Both the position numbers and the translations under genes were made by a program. A DNA stretch of 64,000 bases from a virus (Duplodnaviria; Caudoviricetes). The stretch's first letter is position 1, and each line of letters opens with the position of its first letter. Below, in pieces: positions 6,754 through 61,683 of this stretch. Under the pieces are notes generated by a model that had not been told where the DNA came from, did not search any database, and saw only the letters and a list, made by a program, of their open reading frames with translations. Location: positions 15,222-79,221 of the IMG/VR virus record IMGVR_UViG_2974512403_000001; one strand, given 5' to 3'.

Positions 6754-7155
6754 TTAATGATTGGGGGCATTCAATCCGTCAATTAATTTTTCAAGTTGTC
6801 TTGATAATTCTGCGGTATTGATTTCTACCAACATGGCTAGTTGCTTGTTAAAATTTTCTTGCTTTTTCTTTTGAGATTCTTTCAGCAAATCGTCAGTCGA
6901 CACAAAACGATCGCCGTTATCAACAATACCACCCCTTAAACTATTTTCCCAATTCCTCCAACGTTTTGAATATTCGATAATCTTTCCAATTTCGACGTTA
7001 ACATTATCTTTCTTACCAGCACGATCAGCATATTTAAAAATATTAAATTTGTATGCTCCTCGCATTTCGTCTTCTGTGAGAATTTTTTCCATATGGTCCA
7101 ACAAATCTTTCCCACCATGTTGATAGTGTTCTGGGATAATCTTTTCTTCTGCCAT
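6754..7155 (-). CDS. DUF3310-like phage protein
   Basis: PEHYQHGG...FNIFKYADRAGKK pattern. Confidence 0.7.
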   Translation of the reverse strand: MAEEKIIPEHYQHGGKDLLDHMEKILTEDEMRGAYKFNIFKYADRAGKKDNVNVEIGKIIEYSKRWRNWENSLRGGIVDNGDRFVSTDDLLKESQKKKQENFNKQLAMLVEINTAELSRQLEKLIDGLNAPNH

Positions 7156-17309: not shown

Positions 17310-17795
17310 ATGACCCCTATTCTTGATGCTTGCTGTGGTGGAAAAATGTTTTGGTTTGACAAAGACAATCAAAACGTTACATTTATGGATCGTCGTGAGG
17401 AAGAAAACATCATTGGTAAATATCAAACAAAACAAGGAGAAAAAGACAGGGTGTTAAGGGTTGCACCAGATATAGTTGGCGATTTTAGAAATATGCCATT
17501 CAGCAATGAATCATTTTACATGGTCGTGTTTGATCCACCACATTTACGGTATGCCGGTAAATCATCATGGCTGGCCAAGAAGTATGGCACGTTAGACGAA
17601 ACTTGGCCATTTGATCTACGGAAGGGGTTTACCGAGTGCATGCGGGTATTAAAGCCGCATGGCACATTAATATTTAAATGGAATGAAGAACAAATTAAAT
17701 TGAGTGAGCTGTTAGATGCTATTGGACAACAACCGTTGTTTGGAGACAAGCGTGGCAAGACACACTGGTTGGTATTTATGAAAGGAATTTTATAA
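17310..17795 (+). CDS. small SAM-dependent methyltransferase (amino-MTase-like)
   Basis: ILDACCGG SAM motif, FDPPH catalytic-type motif, RVLKPHG. Confidence 0.8.
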   Translation: MTPILDACCGGKMFWFDKDNQNVTFMDRREEENIIGKYQTKQGEKDRVLRVAPDIVGDFRNMPFSNESFYMVVFDPPHLRYAGKSSWLAKKYGTLDETWPFDLRKGFTECMRVLKPHGTLIFKWNEEQIKLSELLDAIGQQPLFGDKRGKTHWLVFMKGIL

Positions 17796-19915
17796 TGAGA
17801 TTTTTAGATCTATTTGCTGGTGTTGGTGGGATTAGGCTTGGTATGGAACAAGCCGGACACAAGTGTGTTGGGTGGGTAGAATGGGACAAATTCGCTCGAA
17901 AAAGCTATATTGCAGTCCACAATCCTACAAACGAGTACACAGAGAAAGATATTAATGATATTAAAGTGAGCGATTTACCAGTTGCTGATTGTTGGTGTTT
18001 TGGCTTTCCTTGCAGCCCAGCCGGAACAAAAGTGAAAACAATTGATGGATATAAAAATATCGAAGATATTAAAAAAGGTGATCTAGTTTTAACTCATCAA
18101 GGCCGTTATCAGAAGGTTATTCGACCAATGTCTAAAATTGCTGTAGCAATAAATAAAATCAACGCAAAAGGAGTATTCGACTTACAGCTAACTGATAATC
18201 ATCCATTATACGTATATAACATTAACACTAAAGAGTTTGAATGGGTTAAAGCTTCCAAGTTAAATAAAGATATTCACTATCTAACTCTAAACATCAATAG
18301 ACAAGAAGATAGAATTAATCTATCAAATGATGATATTTGGTTATTGGGTAGATATGTTTCTGACGGATATAAAAGTAAAAACGCAAGTTCATATACACAA
18401 TTTGCGGTAAGAAACTCTAAAGAAAATGAATTTGTTGGCCATTTAGGCGAACATGATTATTCTATTTATCATTCTGATAGAACTGCTCCTGAATATGTAA
18501 TCAAAGACCAAATATTTAGTAATTTAGCTGGTGAATTTGGAGATGGAGCTAAAAATAAGCGCTTAGCAGAATGGATCGTTAATGCGCCTATTAATCAAAT
18601 TAAAACTTTTATTGACGGTTATCTTTCTGGTGATGGATATATTTCTAATGTTAGAACGATGTGGTCTACTGTTTCTGAAGAACTAGCATTAGGATTACAG
18701 TCTTTGTTTATTAAGGCGTTTCATAAGGTTCCAGCAATTTATGTCCGTCACGATAGGCGAAGTGTTACTTTTAATGATACGTATAATTCTCAGATTCATA
18801 AAAAAGATGTTGGAACATTTGTAGTTGGAAATTACATGTGTACAAAAATTAAAAATATCGAAAGAACAGAGCGGCCTGTCGAAGTTTTCAATATGGAAGT
18901 TGAAAACGACAACTCTTATACACTAGAGAATATTATTGTTCACAATTGCCAAGATATATCAGTCGCTGGTAAACAAGGAGGATTCACAAATGGAAAAAGG
19001 TCAAGTCTGTTCTTCAAAGTCACAGGACTTATTAGGGAACTCAAAGAAGAAGATAAACCCAGCTACCTATTCATTGAAAATGTTAAAAACCTACTTAGCA
19101 TCAACAAGGGGTGGGACTTCGCAAAGTTGCAAATTGAATTGGATGAAATCGGGTACGATGTCGAATGGGACGTTCTCGACTCAGCAGAAGTCGTGCCTCA
19201 GCACCGGGAACGCATCTTCATTATCGGACATCTTAGAGGACGAGGTACCAGAAAAGTATTTCCTATCTCAAGACAAGGTAGAAAAACTAGTAACGAAATA
19301 AAAGAAATTACTAAGGTCAATAAAAATCGCCACAGCTCAGAGGGAAATTCCGTATTAGATACAAATGGTTTGGGGCAAACTATTTCTGCAACTAGCTTTA
19401 AGCATGTGATGAAAATTGCTATTAACCAGGTTGGTAATATAAGCAACTCAAAATCATATAATGGCAATCCACAGGTTGGCCGTGTATATGGGACTGATGG
19501 AATTGCACCAACTCTAAGCACTATGCAAGGTGGTGGTCAAGAGCCAAAGATTGCTGTTGCTAAAAAACGATTTGGAAGACTTGGAATACAGGCAGTAGAA
19601 ACATTTAATTACAAACGGCCAAAATATGGAGATACGATTGATCCATATAATAAACGTATTCGTACTGATGGGAATACAAATACCATAACAACAAGACCAG
19701 AGGGACTTAAAACGGCAATACTTCCAGTTACACAGGATATGCGAATCAGAAAACTAATACCACTTGAATGCTGGCGACTGCAAGGTTTCCCAGATTGGGC
19801 GTTTGAACGTGCTAAGCAAGCCGGATTAAGTGACAGCCAACTGTATAAGCAGGCAGGCAACAGTGTGACGGTGCCTGTTATTAAAGCGATTGCTAAGAAT
19901 ATGGAGATGTATTAA
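17795..19915 (+). CDS. dcm: C5-cytosine DNA methyltransferase containing an intein
   Basis: DLFAGVGG (I), GFP-C (IV, split), IENV (VI), QHRERIF (VIII), RLQGFPD (IX), YKQAGNSV (X). Confidence 0.93.
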   Translation: MRFLDLFAGVGGIRLGMEQAGHKCVGWVEWDKFARKSYIAVHNPTNEYTEKDINDIKVSDLPVADCWCFGFPCSPAGTKVKTIDGYKNIEDIKKGDLVLTHQGRYQKVIRPMSKIAVAINKINAKGVFDLQLTDNHPLYVYNINTKEFEWVKASKLNKDIHYLTLNINRQEDRINLSNDDIWLLGRYVSDGYKSKNASSYTQFAVRNSKENEFVGHLGEHDYSIYHSDRTAPEYVIKDQIFSNLAGEFGDGAKNKRLAEWIVNAPINQIKTFIDGYLSGDGYISNVRTMWSTVSEELALGLQSLFIKAFHKVPAIYVRHDRRSVTFNDTYNSQIHKKDVGTFVVGNYMCTKIKNIERTERPVEVFNMEVENDNSYTLENIIVHNCQDISVAGKQGGFTNGKRSSLFFKVTGLIRELKEEDKPSYLFIENVKNLLSINKGWDFAKLQIELDEIGYDVEWDVLDSAEVVPQHRERIFIIGHLRGRGTRKVFPISRQGRKTSNEIKEITKVNKNRHSSEGNSVLDTNGLGQTISATSFKHVMKIAINQVGNISNSKSYNGNPQVGRVYGTDGIAPTLSTMQGGGQEPKIAVAKKRFGRLGIQAVETFNYKRPKYGDTIDPYNKRIRTDGNTNTITTRPEGLKTAILPVTQDMRIRKLIPLECWRLQGFPDWAFERAKQAGLSDSQLYKQAGNSVTVPVIKAIAKNMEMY
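18011..18946 (+). mobile_element. 312-aa intein with LAGLIDADG endonuclease
   Basis: starts CSPAGTKV, ends VHN before +1 Cys; LLGRYVSDG and FIDGYLSGDG blocks. Confidence 0.92.
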
Positions 19916-20104
19916 ATGCAAAAAGACAACCTAAGAACTAAATTAGAAGAAGTAATTGATAGATATGGGTTAACATATGAGAGTTACGATGAAGAAGGAG
20001 ATCTAGCGCCGTCAAATGTTGAATATGACTTGATTGATGATATTGTTGATCTGGTTTCAGATGAAGTTTCAGGATTTATTTTAGAACAGAACAAAATTAT
20101 TTAA
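19916..20104 (+). CDS. small acidic hypothetical protein
   Basis: ORF after MTase. Confidence 0.55.
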   Translation: MQKDNLRTKLEEVIDRYGLTYESYDEEGDLAPSNVEYDLIDDIVDLVSDEVSGFILEQNKII

Positions 20105-20112
20105 ATCAGGTA

Positions 20113-20141
20113 TTGACATAGCATACGTTATTTAGTATGCT
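20113..20141 (+). promoter_or_regulatory. sigma70-type promoter of mazF operon
   Basis: TTGACA-17-TATGCT; overlaps inverted repeat TAGCATAC/GTATGCTA. Confidence 0.75.
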
Positions 20142-20172
20142 ATATACATATTGAAGAAAGAGGTAAATAATT

Positions 20173-20538
20173 ATGTTAGTAAATGGAGAAAAAATTAGCC
20201 GAGGGAATATTTATATTGCAGATCTTGGTGAACGAACAAGTAAACATGATGCAACACAACGTGGCCGGCGCCCAGTAATCGTTGTGTCGAATGATAAAGC
20301 AAATGAATATTCACCGTCGGTTACGATCGTACCATTGACATCTTCAACTAGTAAGCATGAATTGCCAACACACTCATCTTTTTATCTTGAAAATCATGGT
20401 ACTGAGGTCATGAATACTGCTCTCTGTGAACAAATTCAAAATATCAATGTTTATCAACTTCTATACTGTGTTGGTAGCATTGACTACAGTGTAATGAACA
20501 GCATCGACCATAACTTGATGGTAGCGTTAGGATTATGA
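20173..20538 (+). CDS. mazF: MazF/PemK-family endoribonuclease, no adjacent antitoxin recognised
   Basis: RGNIYIADLG...QRGRRPVIVVSND...VPLTS...LPTH...CEQIQ; catalytic Arg and Thr retained; resembles B. subtilis NdoA. Confidence 0.9.
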   Translation: MLVNGEKISRGNIYIADLGERTSKHDATQRGRRPVIVVSNDKANEYSPSVTIVPLTSSTSKHELPTHSSFYLENHGTEVMNTALCEQIQNINVYQLLYCVGSIDYSVMNSIDHNLMVALGL

Positions 20539-20858
20539 AAGTCTGTATAATTATCAACAAGACTGACGATGGCATGTGTGTGAATTATGCGTCTATCTCA
20601 GAAGATGGACTTGAAAGTTATTACAGACATTGCTTTTATTATTTTGATGCTGAGAATGCTGTTAAATATATTACTGATCAAATTAATGAAAAACATGTTG
20701 ATATTATGTCAGACAGCAAAAAGTTAATTAAGGTATTTAAGAAGATCAAGAAGTCAAAATATAAAGAAAATGTTAATTTTATATGCTTTCCAGTTGACAA
20801 CGAGAAAATAAATAATGTATTTAATAGATTGCATATGATCTATAAGGAGAATAACTAA
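20535..20858 (+). CDS. hypothetical protein coupled to mazF
   Basis: ATGA overlap. Confidence 0.6.
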   Translation: MKVCIIINKTDDGMCVNYASISEDGLESYYRHCFYYFDAENAVKYITDQINEKHVDIMSDSKKLIKVFKKIKKSKYKENVNFICFPVDNEKINNVFNRLHMIYKENN

Positions 20859-23931: not shown

Positions 23932-23960
23932 TTGACTTACAAAATGTAGTATGCTAACAT
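23932..23960 (+). promoter_or_regulatory. promoter of tRNA cluster
   Basis: TTGACT-17-TAACAT with TG extension. Confidence 0.6.
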
Positions 23961-31702: not shown

Positions 31703-31758
31703 TGTCTCTCACCATTCCTTTTCATATACTATATGTATGCCCCTGATCGGGGCGATTG

Positions 31759-41521: not shown

Positions 41522-41569
41522 CCGTTTGCCTCCTATTTCTTTATGTACGGGAGATATTTCTCCCAAATT

Positions 41570-43348: not shown

Positions 43349-43410
43349 CGGTTTTAACCTCCCACTCTCTATTATATGTACATGGGGGGAAATATTCCCC
43401 CATAAAATGG

Positions 43411-49738: not shown

Positions 49739-49846
49739 ATAAATCTCCTCGTCTTTCATATTAAATTATGTATACCACCAAAAGGTGGTAGTTGCTATTC
49801 AGCAACGATGGTTGCGCCATCATAACTTGGAGTTATCGACACCACT

Positions 49847-52026: not shown

Positions 52027-52060
52027 TGCACCTCCTATGTACCCGTTAAGGGTTTACCCC

Positions 52061-52510
52061 TTAAGCGGTTGGCGTTGCTTTAACTGCTGCCGACTTAGCT
52101 GATTCCCCAGCACCGTTCTTAACCGTTGCTTGGACAGTATATTCAGTACCAGCAGTTAATCCAGTAATTGACCCAGTTAATGAAGTCTTTAAATCTACCG
52201 TTCCATTATTGGTGCCGTCAGTCCAATAAGCAACTCGGTCGGTGATTGCACTGCCTGTATTTTCGCCATCAACTAAAGTAACATCAATTTTGCCAGAACC
52301 AGCGGTTAGCGTTGCGGTTGGTGCTGATGGTACTTTATCTAAAGTTGTAAAATCTGAAATTGTTGTCTTCTCAGATGCACCGGCATATGCAATTTGATAG
52401 CCAGAAACCTTTGTGTTCGGCTTTAACCCAGTAATTGTAACTGGAGATGGCTGATTGTCAATTTTCTTTGCGCCAGCATTGTCGTAAACATCAAAATTTG
52501 CCAAAAACAT
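52061..52510 (-). CDS. tandem fibronectin type III-like protein (virion decoration candidate)
   Basis: ITGLKPNTK and ITGLTAGTEYTVQ repeats; start may be TTG 52504. Confidence 0.75.
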   Translation of the reverse strand: MFLANFDVYDNAGAKKIDNQPSPVTITGLKPNTKVSGYQIAYAGASEKTTISDFTTLDKVPSAPTATLTAGSGKIDVTLVDGENTGSAITDRVAYWTDGTNNGTVDLKTSLTGSITGLTAGTEYTVQATVKNGAGESAKSAAVKATPTA

Positions 52511-52629
52511 AACCTCCTATCGTGAAACCATATGTATGCCCCCGCAATGGGGGTAATCGGATTTACTACTTGGCAACAACCGTTGCACCATCGGCAGTCG
52601 GTGTTACACTAGTCACCGTTGGTGCCGGA

Positions 52630-58094: not shown

Positions 58095-58221
58095 AATAAT
58101 CACCTCAATATATGTAAAGCCCAACTGTGGCATGGGCCAGCCATTTTATTAACGTTGCTGGTTATAAAAGAACATGGAAAGAAAACACCCAGCCGTTTTA
58201 CTTTATTGGAATTAAGCTACA

Positions 58222-58962: not shown

Positions 58963-59143
58963 AATATGTATGCCCGACACACTGGCGCCTGTAGCACCGT
59001 GTTATCAGGGCTTTATCTATCTCAACCGAGGCTAGACCAGATAGATTTGGTTTTTCTACTAGCAAAAGAATGCTTGCCTCCAAAGGCTACTCCATTATGG
59101 AACTTTTACTTTCGGGTGCGCGCTTCTCGGAACTTAAACTATG

Positions 59144-59653
59144 TTATTTGTTATAATTTAATTCGCCAGACAAGAAATCGTTAATGGTTGTTTGCATTTC
59201 TTGCATGAACCCTACCACACTAGCAATTGTGTAGTTTTCAGGAATAGGATCGCCAGCACCGACATATGACAGAAGAATTTGTACTTCCATTCTAAACCGA
59301 TTGAGAATACCTTTGATTGGTTCTAAGAAGTCATGCTCATAACTTAAGATGGAAAAATTTGGAGCTTCATGATTGATTTGTTGGTAAACAATATGAGATA
59401 AGCGATTGTTATATTCATCATCATCAAAATTAATGTCATCGCTAGAGTCATCGCTCTTGTTTGCGTAACTGGCAACCGCTCTCTGAGTCATCCAATCAAG
59501 ATAATAGTAAAGCTTCTTTAGCAAGTTACATGCACTGTTCGCTTGATCATCCGATCGAGCACTGACTTTAATCACATCTAGGTTCAAATCACGTTCTCTT
59601 TGCATCATATGTTCAAAGTTTTCAAGCTGATAAACATTTCTTGACTTTGTCAT
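59144..59653 (-). CDS. hypothetical protein
   Basis: 169-aa ORF, AGGT RBS. Confidence 0.65.
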   Translation of the reverse strand: MTKSRNVYQLENFEHMMQRERDLNLDVIKVSARSDDQANSACNLLKKLYYYLDWMTQRAVASYANKSDDSSDDINFDDDEYNNRLSHIVYQQINHEAPNFSILSYEHDFLEPIKGILNRFRMEVQILLSYVGAGDPIPENYTIASVVGFMQEMQTTINDFLSGELNYNK

Positions 59654-59789
59654 TTTGCATTACCTACCTTTTTATTTCTTAAAATGGGTACAACTCCCAA
59701 AATAAGCATATTACTATGTATCATAAGTGGGTTTTACTACCCCACGTGTATTATATCTAAAATATGTACTGCTGACGTTATGTCAGCTT

Positions 59790-60838: not shown

Positions 60839-60999
60839 GCATCTCACTCCCCTTTAATATGTATTACCAATGCAAAGACTGAAAGAAATCATTGGTATGC
60901 GCTTCCTTGGCAGATTTTTTGAACAATAATGTCCGTCTCTATAACTTTGACGAGTTATGTACGAGAAGATAAAATCTTCTCAGGAGGAATAATGAATGA

Positions 61000-61275: not shown

Positions 61276-61479
61276 AAATAGTATTCTCCTTTATATAAGT
61301 GCTAAAGCACTAACTGAGAGTAACTCGCTAACGCTCGAACTCTCAGTCTCCTGTCACACGATTAATTAAATGTTATCATGTGGTCGCCAAATGCGACATC
61401 GGGACACCCCTAACGGGACCTCATCACAGCAAGCTGTGCTGATTCCCTTCCCCCTAGCTCCCTACATATATGTCAAAAT

Positions 61480-61530
61480 ATGGTCGAAATATGTACTTTT
61501 TTTTACGTATTTTGTACATATTTCGACCAT
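61480..61530. repeat. perfect 17-bp inverted repeat in late/early divergence (candidate cos-associated or operator site)
   Basis: ATGGTCGAAATATGTAC (61480-61496) / GTACATATTTCGACCAT (61514-61530). Confidence 0.8.
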
Positions 61531-61627: not shown

Positions 61628-61656
61628 TTGACAATATCGTGATAATGAATTATTAT
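61628..61656 (+). promoter_or_regulatory. rightward sigma70-type promoter
   Basis: TTGACA-17-TATTAT. Confidence 0.65.
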
Positions 61657-61683
61657 ATATACATAAAGAAAGAAGGAATAAAA

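Follow-up and report, generated by a model that had tools for sequence, protein, structure and literature searches.

The stretch analysed here (the window) comprises 64,000 nucleotides, that is, bases 15222-79221 of the 79,221-bp virus record IMGVR_UViG_2974512403_000001. Our subject is its gene for a MazF-type endoribonuclease (mazF), together with the stem-loops followed by TACATA (hereafter, cassettes) that lie between the late genes on the other strand. The region of about 3 kb around mazF is 95.7% identical to Lactobacillus phage Lenus and 92.4% identical to SA-C12, both members of Lenusvirus in the Tybeckvirinae, and the window was assigned to Lenusvirus. The genome is of the virulent type and carries a tyrosine recombinase gene; mazF sits among replication and nucleotide-metabolism genes. 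The orthologues in Lenus and SA-C12 already carry the annotation "ndoA / mRNA interferase / MazF-like growth inhibitor", so that no novelty attaches to the gene call as such. What, however, could such an enzyme do in a phage? Here, we consider the possibility that it processes the phage's own late transcript. The features concerned are listed in Table 1.

Table 1. Features of the mazF locus and of the late region, in window coordinates (SD, Shine-Dalgarno sequence; ORF, open reading frame; each late cassette is a stem-loop followed by TACATA).
Feature	Position	Strand	Description
62-aa acidic ORF	19916..20104	+	phrog_28654; upstream of mazF
Predicted sigma-A-type promoter	20113..20141	+	TTGACA 20113-20118, 17-nt spacer, TATGCT 20136-20141; consensus score 10/12
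Inverted repeat	20118..20143	+	ATAGCATAC N8 GTATGCTAT; 9 bp; occupies promoter spacer and -10
TACATA at predicted mazF transcription-start region	20145..20150	+	exact sequence match
mazF, PemK/EndoA-type endoribonuclease	20173..20538	+	121 aa; PF02452, phrog_1936
107-aa ORF, candidate partner or antitoxin	20535..20858	+	ATGA overlap with mazF; phrog_14545, no known function
Late cassette before tyrosine recombinase gene	31732..31753	-	
Late cassette after Dit gene	41542..41565	-	
Late cassette after tape-measure gene	43375..43404	-	
Late cassette after major tail protein gene	49767..49790	-	7-bp stem, gap 0, fold z -3.5; same boundary in 6ec
Late cassette at head-tail adaptor gene	52036..52068	-	abuts SD (TACATA then GGAGGTG); same junction in Maenad and 8014-B2
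Late cassette directly after major capsid gene	52531..52553	-	
Late cassette before large terminase gene	58111..58138	-	6-bp stem, gap 1; 6ec has one at same boundary
Late cassette at head of tRNA / tRNA-like cluster	58965..59011	-	long imperfect stem
Late cassette before gene 59144-59653	59715..59745	-	imperfect stem
Late cassette after small terminase gene	59763..59787	-	6-bp stem, gap 2; same site in Lenus
Late cassette	60956..60982	-	9-bp stem, gap 0; same site in Lenus
Second promoter, same layout as at mazF	61628..61665	+	TTGACA, 17 nt with AT-rich repeat, TATTAT, ata, TACATA, then similar SD

The mazF gene and its neighbours

The mazF ORF is intact, and its product matches PF02452 (E 6.3e-18; 65.4 bits against a cut-off of 23.1; profile positions 2-107 of 109) as well as phrog_1936, "MazF-like growth inhibitor" (E 1e-37), which PHROGs places in the category "host takeover". 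The family is defined by sequence-specific cutting of single-stranded RNA, with 5'-OH and 2',3'-cyclic phosphate ends as products. The nearest solved structures (7bxy, 4hke, 4mdx and 4mzm; E about 1e-15) are those of B. anthracis MoxT, B. subtilis EndoA and S. aureus MazF, all from Bacillota and about 36% identical to the phage protein. Arg33, Pro34 and Thr56 align with Arg25, Pro26 and Thr48 of EndoA and are invariant in 14 sequences, including Bacillus core MazF. Catalytic roles of EndoA Arg25 and Thr48, with Pro26 adjacent, are given in PMC8634880, which cites the 4MDX structure. In the alignment, the motifs K-x-LPTH and L-x-EQ are likewise invariant across the phage clade and in Bacillus core MazF. 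An intact MazF/PemK gene with a promoter of its own had been described in a first-pass annotation of this sequence; the profile matches and the kept Arg and Thr confirm the former, and the sigma-A-type consensus match in Table 1 supplies a putative promoter.

Between the window and SA-C12, the gene shows 27 nucleotide differences, all of them synonymous, and no amino-acid change; the next two ORFs differ by 8 and 12 amino acids, and MazF is the best-conserved protein of its neighbourhood. The phage apparently needs the MazF protein as it is, and the gene is a real and selected mazF whose product is probably active. It should be noted that "core" MazF is more than 60% identical to B. subtilis MazF in most species (bioRxiv 10.64898/2026.08.06.743204). 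An EndoA orthologue would show such identity at an alr-linked chromosomal locus, and the phage protein, with about 36% identity and a phage locus, is a relative, not an orthologue, of the UACAUA-specific core MazF of Bacillota.

Among the ORFs neighbouring mazF, profile scans with Pfam and PHROGs gave no MazE, ribbon-helix-helix (RHH) or AbrB match, and the locus has no recognisable antitoxin gene of the kind found next to the toxin gene in type II mazEF operons (MazE, with an RHH, AbrB or SpoVT fold). The 62-aa acidic ORF upstream was ruled out as a MazE-like antitoxin: it is absent in SA-C12, and unrelated genes take its place in Maenad and 8014-B2. The downstream 107-aa ORF is more persistent. 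Lenus, SA-C12, Maenad and 8014-B2, the four annotated phages with a clade-A mazF, all have a homologue of it after mazF, and on four metagenomic contigs (L028-L031) an ORF of comparable size is similarly placed. Thus, mazF was rightly called an orphan insofar as no MazE can be recognised, but the conserved, ATGA-coupled ORF makes the term provisional.

The coupling and the recurrence of this ORF could indicate a toxin-antitoxin or exclusion module in reverse order, in which the 107-aa product neutralises MazF and the pair serves plasmid-like maintenance, the exclusion of superinfecting phages or abortive infection, with no part in late mRNA processing. The tyrosine recombinase gene would suit such a module, and so would the promoter-overlapping palindrome at mazF, a feature generally typical of autoregulated type II operons. 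However, the 107-aa ORF has no Pfam match, no antitoxin or DNA-binding domain was recognised in it with Pfam, PHROGs or the ESM Atlas, its sequence has changed far more than that of MazF between the window and SA-C12, and ATCCB has mazF without it; the AlphaFold2 model (predicted local distance difference test, pLDDT, 55) is too poor for a fold search. The canonical type II mazEF operon shares with the phage locus the MazF toxin and the promoter-overlapping palindrome. The phage locus differs from it in having no MazE-like gene, in that its sole conserved neighbour is downstream, fast-diverging and of no known fold, and in that a clade of lytic-type phages carries the gene throughout, not patchily. 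A module of this kind would also leave the cassettes and the motif depletion described below unexplained. We regard it as improbable, and it is compatible with the explanation favoured below rather than exclusive of it.

One further gene of the neighbourhood deserves mention. In a C5 cytosine methyltransferase gene on the plus strand at 17795-19915 (706-aa ORF), the catalytic Pro-Cys motif is followed by an inserted intein that has a LAGLIDADG domain; the orthologues in Lenus (395 aa) and SA-C12 (375 aa) are both without the intein insert.

Late cassettes and depletion of the motif

On the minus strand, 11 intergenic stem-loops are followed by TACATA after 0-2 nt (6 nt at 59720), and then by an SD. 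In the late region, 8/14 sense copies of TACATA come after a strict hairpin, against a background of 3% (P 1.8e-9), and TACATA is the commonest hexamer after hairpins. The stem sequences differ between genera, but the hexamer is invariant. Maenad and 8014-B2 have 7 cassettes each at corresponding late gene boundaries, including sites with other stems after the small terminase gene, and Lenus keeps 8. The capsid gene is followed by a hairpin and TACATA in seven relatives (Lenus, Maenad, 8014-B2, ATCCB, Ldl1, VPE25 and 6ec), each with its own stem sequence. As for recombinase genes elsewhere, a hairpin with TACATA precedes that of VPE25 and a bare TACATA that of Javan405. The statistics and the conservation across genera therefore bear out the late hairpin-TACATA elements that the first-pass annotation had reported. 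TACATA as a generally enriched word was rejected, with 39 copies found in the window against 50.7 expected; the signal lies in placement and strand.

The hexamer is exactly the strict in-vivo motif of the characterised relatives, U/ACAUA; the first-pass annotation had given U^ACAU for the B. subtilis and S. aureus enzymes. In end-enriched RNA sequencing (Rend-seq), cutting by B. subtilis EndoA was confined to U/ACAU with A as the next base and depended on ndoA (PMC11780869). UACAUA was the sole cleaved reporter site among those tested for Listeria MazF and the best-cleaved one for S. aureus MazF (bioRxiv 10.64898/2026.08.06.743204).

Depletion was measured as the observed count against a codon-shuffled expectation, with amino-acid sequence and codon usage held fixed. 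On the sense strand of coding sequence, TACAT occurs 34 times versus 59.1 expected (z -3.5) and TACATA 4 times versus 13.4 (z -2.7), whereas the reverse complements are not depleted. In the early arm outside the window, TACATA is found 0 times versus 3.2 expected. The coding depletion recurs in Lenus, Maenad, 8014-B2 and ATCCB. The depletion noticed at first sight is thus real on the sense strand of coding sequence, and flat for the reverse complement. A UACAUA-type MazF would be expected to leave its carrier genome depleted of cut sites where cutting does harm, and the phage coding sequence is consistent with this, as indirect evidence.

Could the cassettes instead be transcription signals acting at the DNA level, with TACATA as a late promoter or initiator, hairpins that end the preceding unit and a merely coincidental match to the MazF motif? 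TACATA does lie at the predicted start of two sigma-A-type promoters as well, no late promoter is known for this phage group, and the late hairpins are without U-tracts, so that they are not classical terminators. If the start lay within TACATA, however, GC-rich stems would fill the place of the -10 element. If TACATA were itself the -10 element, the mRNA of the head-tail adaptor gene would begin inside or beyond the conserved GGAGGTG SD in three genera, and this junction argues against such a role. Moreover, the depletion is limited to the sense strand and includes early genes, and the annotation of Lenus lists neither a phage RNA polymerase nor a sigma factor. We consider transcription signals a very improbable explanation.

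The RNA data comprised 24 runs with relatives of the late region, all in the form of assembled contigs, and the four metatranscriptome runs compared gave no molecule ends. For contigs ending at 52556, by the capsid cassette, sequence divergence is at least part of the explanation, since one of them has a loose end there. In addition, one metatranscriptome contig joins 59138 to 59713 and represents a variant without gene 59144-59653, with a deletion that starts 1 base past the TACATA of the 59720 cassette.

The repeat within the predicted mazF promoter

All the sequence features described upstream of mazF in the first-pass annotation were found: the inverted repeat with core TAGCATAC/GTATGCTA (20119-20126 and 20135-20142; 20118-20126 and 20135-20143 in the 9-bp extension), the TACATA, the SD core GAGG (20160-20163) and the ATG at 20173. 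Its view that this site has the same architecture as the late elements was not confirmed. The geometry fits the definition of a late cassette, but the stem consists of promoter spacer and -10 element, and TACATA lies at the predicted +1. The 5' arm begins 1 base past the -35 element, the 3' arm is the -10 hexamer, the repeat is AT-rich, unlike the late stems, and TACATA begins 4 nt past the -10 element. Judged from consensus spacing, the mazF transcript should start inside TACATA, without the stem or an intact UACAUA. Folded as RNA, the palindrome gives -13.1 kcal/mol with a modest z of -2.1. It is unique in the window, and the TACATA beside it is the only non-coding sense-strand copy in the 22-kb plus-strand module. 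The lone other partial match to the palindrome, with 3 mismatches, is at 23933-23956 on the plus strand, upstream of a tRNA-Arg pair; TAGTATGCTA is common to both.

The promoter is better kept than the hexamer. TTGACA, a 17-nt spacer and a TATNNT-type -10 element are found upstream of mazF in 6/9 lineages compared, and the repeat with the -10 element as its 3' arm recurs in other mazF lineages as CATCACAC/GTATGATG (two compensatory pairs, one mismatch) and as ATGATAA/TTATCAT. The stem itself is identical in Lenus, differs in SA-C12 at the outermost pair only (T to C at 20119) and has unchanged arms in 8014-B2. The promoter-adjacent TACATA is kept only in Lenusvirus (window, Lenus and SA-C12) and 8014-B2, and not in 5/9 mazF lineages. 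Its position is occupied by TACACA in a lineage with 77% protein identity, by TACATT in one with 73% and by TTACAATA in another, and it is missing in Maenad. In ATCCB, a TACATA is found about 80 nt upstream of mazF, behind a different, terminator-like hairpin. In one metagenomic lineage (L030, 882-1517), a NUMOD-type homing endonuclease gene overlaps the mazF start and replaces the promoter region.

The second promoter in Table 1, at 61628, repeats the layout and has no same-strand gene upstream. Its copy in Lenus is near-identical, one or two bases shorter between -10 and TACATA, and 8014-B2 shares the layout without the spacer repeat. In Maenad, TTACAAA replaces TACATA at both promoters, yet the late cassettes keep TACATA. 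Because the hexamer is lost in other mazF lineages, recurs in the same layout at promoter 61628 and is replaced in Maenad at promoters only, the promoter-proximal TACATA is most likely a context of the start region, decoupled from the late cassette class. Close to the second promoter, where late and right-arm early genes diverge, 61463-61520 holds a 17-bp inverted repeat, made of ATGGTCGAAATATGTAC and its complement around a loop of about 20 nt; TACATA occurs within both of its arms, and a third copy stands just upstream.

Could the stem and TACATA before mazF nevertheless be a true cleavage cassette, carried on read-through from the methylase operon or on the mazF mRNA and used for autoregulation, as was first proposed? 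The geometry (9-bp stem, 1-nt gap, TACATA, about 10 nt, SD) matches the late cassettes, and read-through RNA would hold both stem and motif, there being no terminator between the upstream genes and mazF. The hairpin with TACATA upstream of ATCCB mazF, and one just downstream of the mazF of NatCom_42228, may be cited in the same sense. So may the 65 nt upstream of mazF, which are 88% identical to 8014-B2 as against 69% for the coding sequence, although this likeness may reflect promoter-cassette exchange and not selection. Against a cassette speak the 3' arm that is the -10 element, the hexamer at the expected transcript start, its loss in the 77%, 73% and P0010 lineages and Maenad while promoter or palindrome is kept in several, the second promoter with "-10, ata, TACATA", and the Maenad replacements. 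A cleavage cassette at mazF, and with it autoregulation through mazF's own site, thus seems unlikely to us. The palindrome could be an operator, or an RNA stem on read-through transcripts; most likely it is a repeat of operator type or embedded in the promoter, and not a cassette cleaved for autoregulation.

Relatives, host enzymes and the proposed mechanism

Table 2 compares the window with related phages, which are of use here since some of them have no mazF. It should be noted that the compared phages are mutually related.

Table 2. Phage-borne mazF, cassettes' hexamer and coding depletion among relatives.
Phage	Phage mazF	Non-coding sense TACATA in late region	Coding TACAT, observed/expected
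Window	yes	10	17/28.4
Lenus	yes	11	15/26.8
Maenad	yes	11	17/27.5
8014-B2	yes	12	14/26.5
ATCCB	yes	10	11/23.2
6ec (Staphylococcus)	none	10	14/29.0
VPE25 (Enterococcus)	none	3	20/28.1
phiLM33_01 (Leuconostoc)	none	6	16/19.4
Ldl1	divergent PemK only	1	16/19.5

No PF02452 gene was found in Staphylococcus phage 6ec, and its depletion is the strongest of all (z -3.8). Its cassettes follow the capsid and major tail genes and precede the large terminase gene, as in the window. At 6779, 8330, 10320, 16842 and 19505 (L025), hairpin, 1-3 nt, TACATAT and SD stand at late-gene boundaries. Because such mazF-less relatives keep them, the cassettes are older and wider in distribution than the phage-borne mazF. 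In these relatives they are probably served by host MazF. A UACAUA-type MazF occurs in 80% of Bacillota species, and Lactobacillus is reported without it (bioRxiv 10.64898/2026.08.06.743204); in an older survey, a MazF-like protein of L. plantarum was grouped with the E. coli type (PMC3519753). Ldl1, whose host genus is reported without MazF, has only a divergent PemK that lacks both the LPTH and the EQ motif, no depletion and at most one cassette. Where a UACAU(A)-type MazF is expected in the infected cell, from the host in 6ec and from the phage in lactobacillus Tybeckvirinae, cassettes and depletion are pronounced; in Ldl1, for which neither source is expected, the signature is absent. The two sources may be hypothesised to complement each other. 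PF02452 was also found in 374/401 genomes of a class-wide scan with a Bacillus start, which gives no taxon names and so has no bearing on the host. An endolysin query for host genomes yielded nothing but LysM matches in unrelated bacteria.

The combined signature of cassettes and depletion is best explained by a MazF that cuts UACAU(A) in the course of infection, and cutting by the phage's own enzyme is plausible. We tentatively favour, at somewhat less than an even chance, an active MazF/EndoA-type endoribonuclease that has its own promoter, is needed by the phage, targets U^ACAUA and processes the late transcript. The specificity, the cleavage, the fate of the products and the acting enzyme are what we infer beyond the gene identity, purifying selection, cassettes, depletion and distribution described above. 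MazF would be made from its sigma-A-type promoter in the replication-gene module, and its likeliest target, by analogy with the closest characterised relatives, would be U^ACAUA in single-stranded form or, at a minimum, the UACAU core. Host messages with the motif would be cut, and the sense-strand motif would have been purged from phage coding sequences of every temporal class. The 31-kb late transcript would be cut at about 11 cassettes, each with a stem-loop, 0-2 nt (6 nt at one), UACAUA, 0-20 nt and SD. With a cut after U, the upstream message would end 1-3 nt past the stem, which should protect it from 3' exonucleases, and the downstream message would start with 5'-OH-ACAUA and keep its SD intact. 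Relatives in hosts reported with a UACAUA-type MazF appear to rely on the host enzyme, and the lactobacillus-infecting Tybeckvirinae would carry their own.

Several observations weigh against this explanation. First, 34 sense copies of TACAT and 3-4 of TACATA are still present in coding sequence. Secondly, the specificity of the phage enzyme could differ from that of EndoA, because the two are only about 36% identical, three residues are inserted in the beta1-beta2 loop, and the positions of EndoA Gly18 and Glu20 are Ser/Thr and not conserved. Thirdly, the first-pass annotation had itself named mazF-less relatives that keep elements and depletion as a finding that would refute it; 6ec keeps both, and VPE25 and phiLM33_01 keep a few cassettes. 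In general, therefore, the cassettes need no phage-borne MazF, and another common factor is possible. A phage-borne enzyme may still act here, because the hosts of those relatives are reported with a UACAUA-type MazF and Lactobacillus without. Host MazF status, however, comes from the literature only, and a MazEF pair of unknown specificity is reported for L. plantarum WCFS1. The co-occurrence counts in Table 2 are not independent, given the kinship of the phages. Finally, the temperate phages NatCom_42228 and Javan405 have mazF homologues and no depletion, so that "phage mazF predicts cassettes" was rejected as a general rule. The overall idea of the first-pass annotation is thus partly supported: it survives in its MazF identity, hexamer, cassettes and depletion, is weakened in the need for a phage-borne enzyme, and finds no support in the autoregulatory site. 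As an observation apart, in the unrelated Clostridium phage NatCom_42228 (L024; 53% GC), an SD or start codon comes directly after 3/5 sense TACATA (38507, 30876 and 25469; "TACATAgaaaGGAG"), and two of these three copies follow hairpins.

The persistence of cassettes in 6ec, VPE25 and phiLM33_01 without a PF02452 gene also suits a different role, in which MazF is only a weapon that shuts off or degrades RNA of the host or of competitors, phage ORFs avoid the motif for self-protection, and the cassettes are served by some other shared factor or by the host enzyme. The PHROGs category "host takeover" points the same way, as does the place of mazF among replication and nucleotide-metabolism genes behind a predicted strong, constitutive-type promoter. 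A UACAUA-cutting enzyme, however, could not spare 11 exposed single-stranded copies in its own late transcript, and depletion and cassettes track a likely UACAU(A)-type MazF in host or phage, with 6ec positive and Ldl1 negative. To our knowledge, no other factor has specificity for the UACAUA hexamer. A purely host-directed role is therefore doubtful, if less so than the other alternatives considered above.

How does a processing MazF compare with known systems? B. subtilis EndoA/MazF (NdoA, YdcE) and the S. aureus and B. anthracis enzymes belong to the same Pfam family, their residues and LPTH/EQ motifs are kept in the phage protein, and their strict in-vivo site is the cassette hexamer; the phage protein differs in identity, in the loop, in the missing upstream MazE and in being phage-borne with its own promoter. 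T4 RegB acts in intergenic and translation-initiation regions, and the RNase III stem-loops between T7 genes define stable mature messages. The likeness to RegB, as a phage sequence-specific endoribonuclease in such regions, would be a functional analogy only: the fold is unrelated, and RegB cuts GGAG in the SD and inactivates early mRNAs, whereas the phage MazF would cut upstream of an intact SD, beside a protective stem, in late mRNAs. The T7 sites are likewise intergenic stem-loops of a long phage transcript with a host-supplied enzyme, as would be the case in 6ec and VPE25. RNase III, however, cuts long duplexes without a motif, and the cassettes combine short variable stems with an invariant single-stranded hexamer. 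In SPbeta and phi3T, a UACAU(A)-cutting host MazF acts on phage transcripts during infection of Bacillota, but there the host enzyme restricts the phage, the transcripts are site-enriched and the phages encode inhibitors (AimX, YosL). Here, the phage encodes the nuclease, is site-depleted and keeps sites only in cassettes. A limited literature search, which included TACATA stem-loops in bacteriophages, found no prior description of a phage MazF that processes phage mRNA.

More speculatively, and with less confidence than in the favoured explanation for this phage, 75-95-kb Bacillota siphophages may organise their late operons around MazF cassettes, either borrowing host core MazF (Staphylococcus, Enterococcus) or carrying a captured, antitoxin-less mazF (lactobacilli). 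This would amount to a toxin-antitoxin nuclease domesticated for viral mRNA processing and host shut-off. MazF is usually viewed as a bacterial toxin or an anti-phage defence, and a phage that depends on MazF cutting would, if true, reverse that view. It would also give the strict six-base specificity of Gram-positive MazF a physiological, non-toxic role, and explain the fixation of mazF in a whole subfamily of Lactobacillus phages. A portable RNA-processing cassette, made of any stem and UACAUA, would then join T4 RegB and the T7 RNase III sites among the few known phage mRNA-processing systems. Since phages of this kind spoil or steer plant, beer and silage fermentations, an essential nuclease and its sites would be useful to know.

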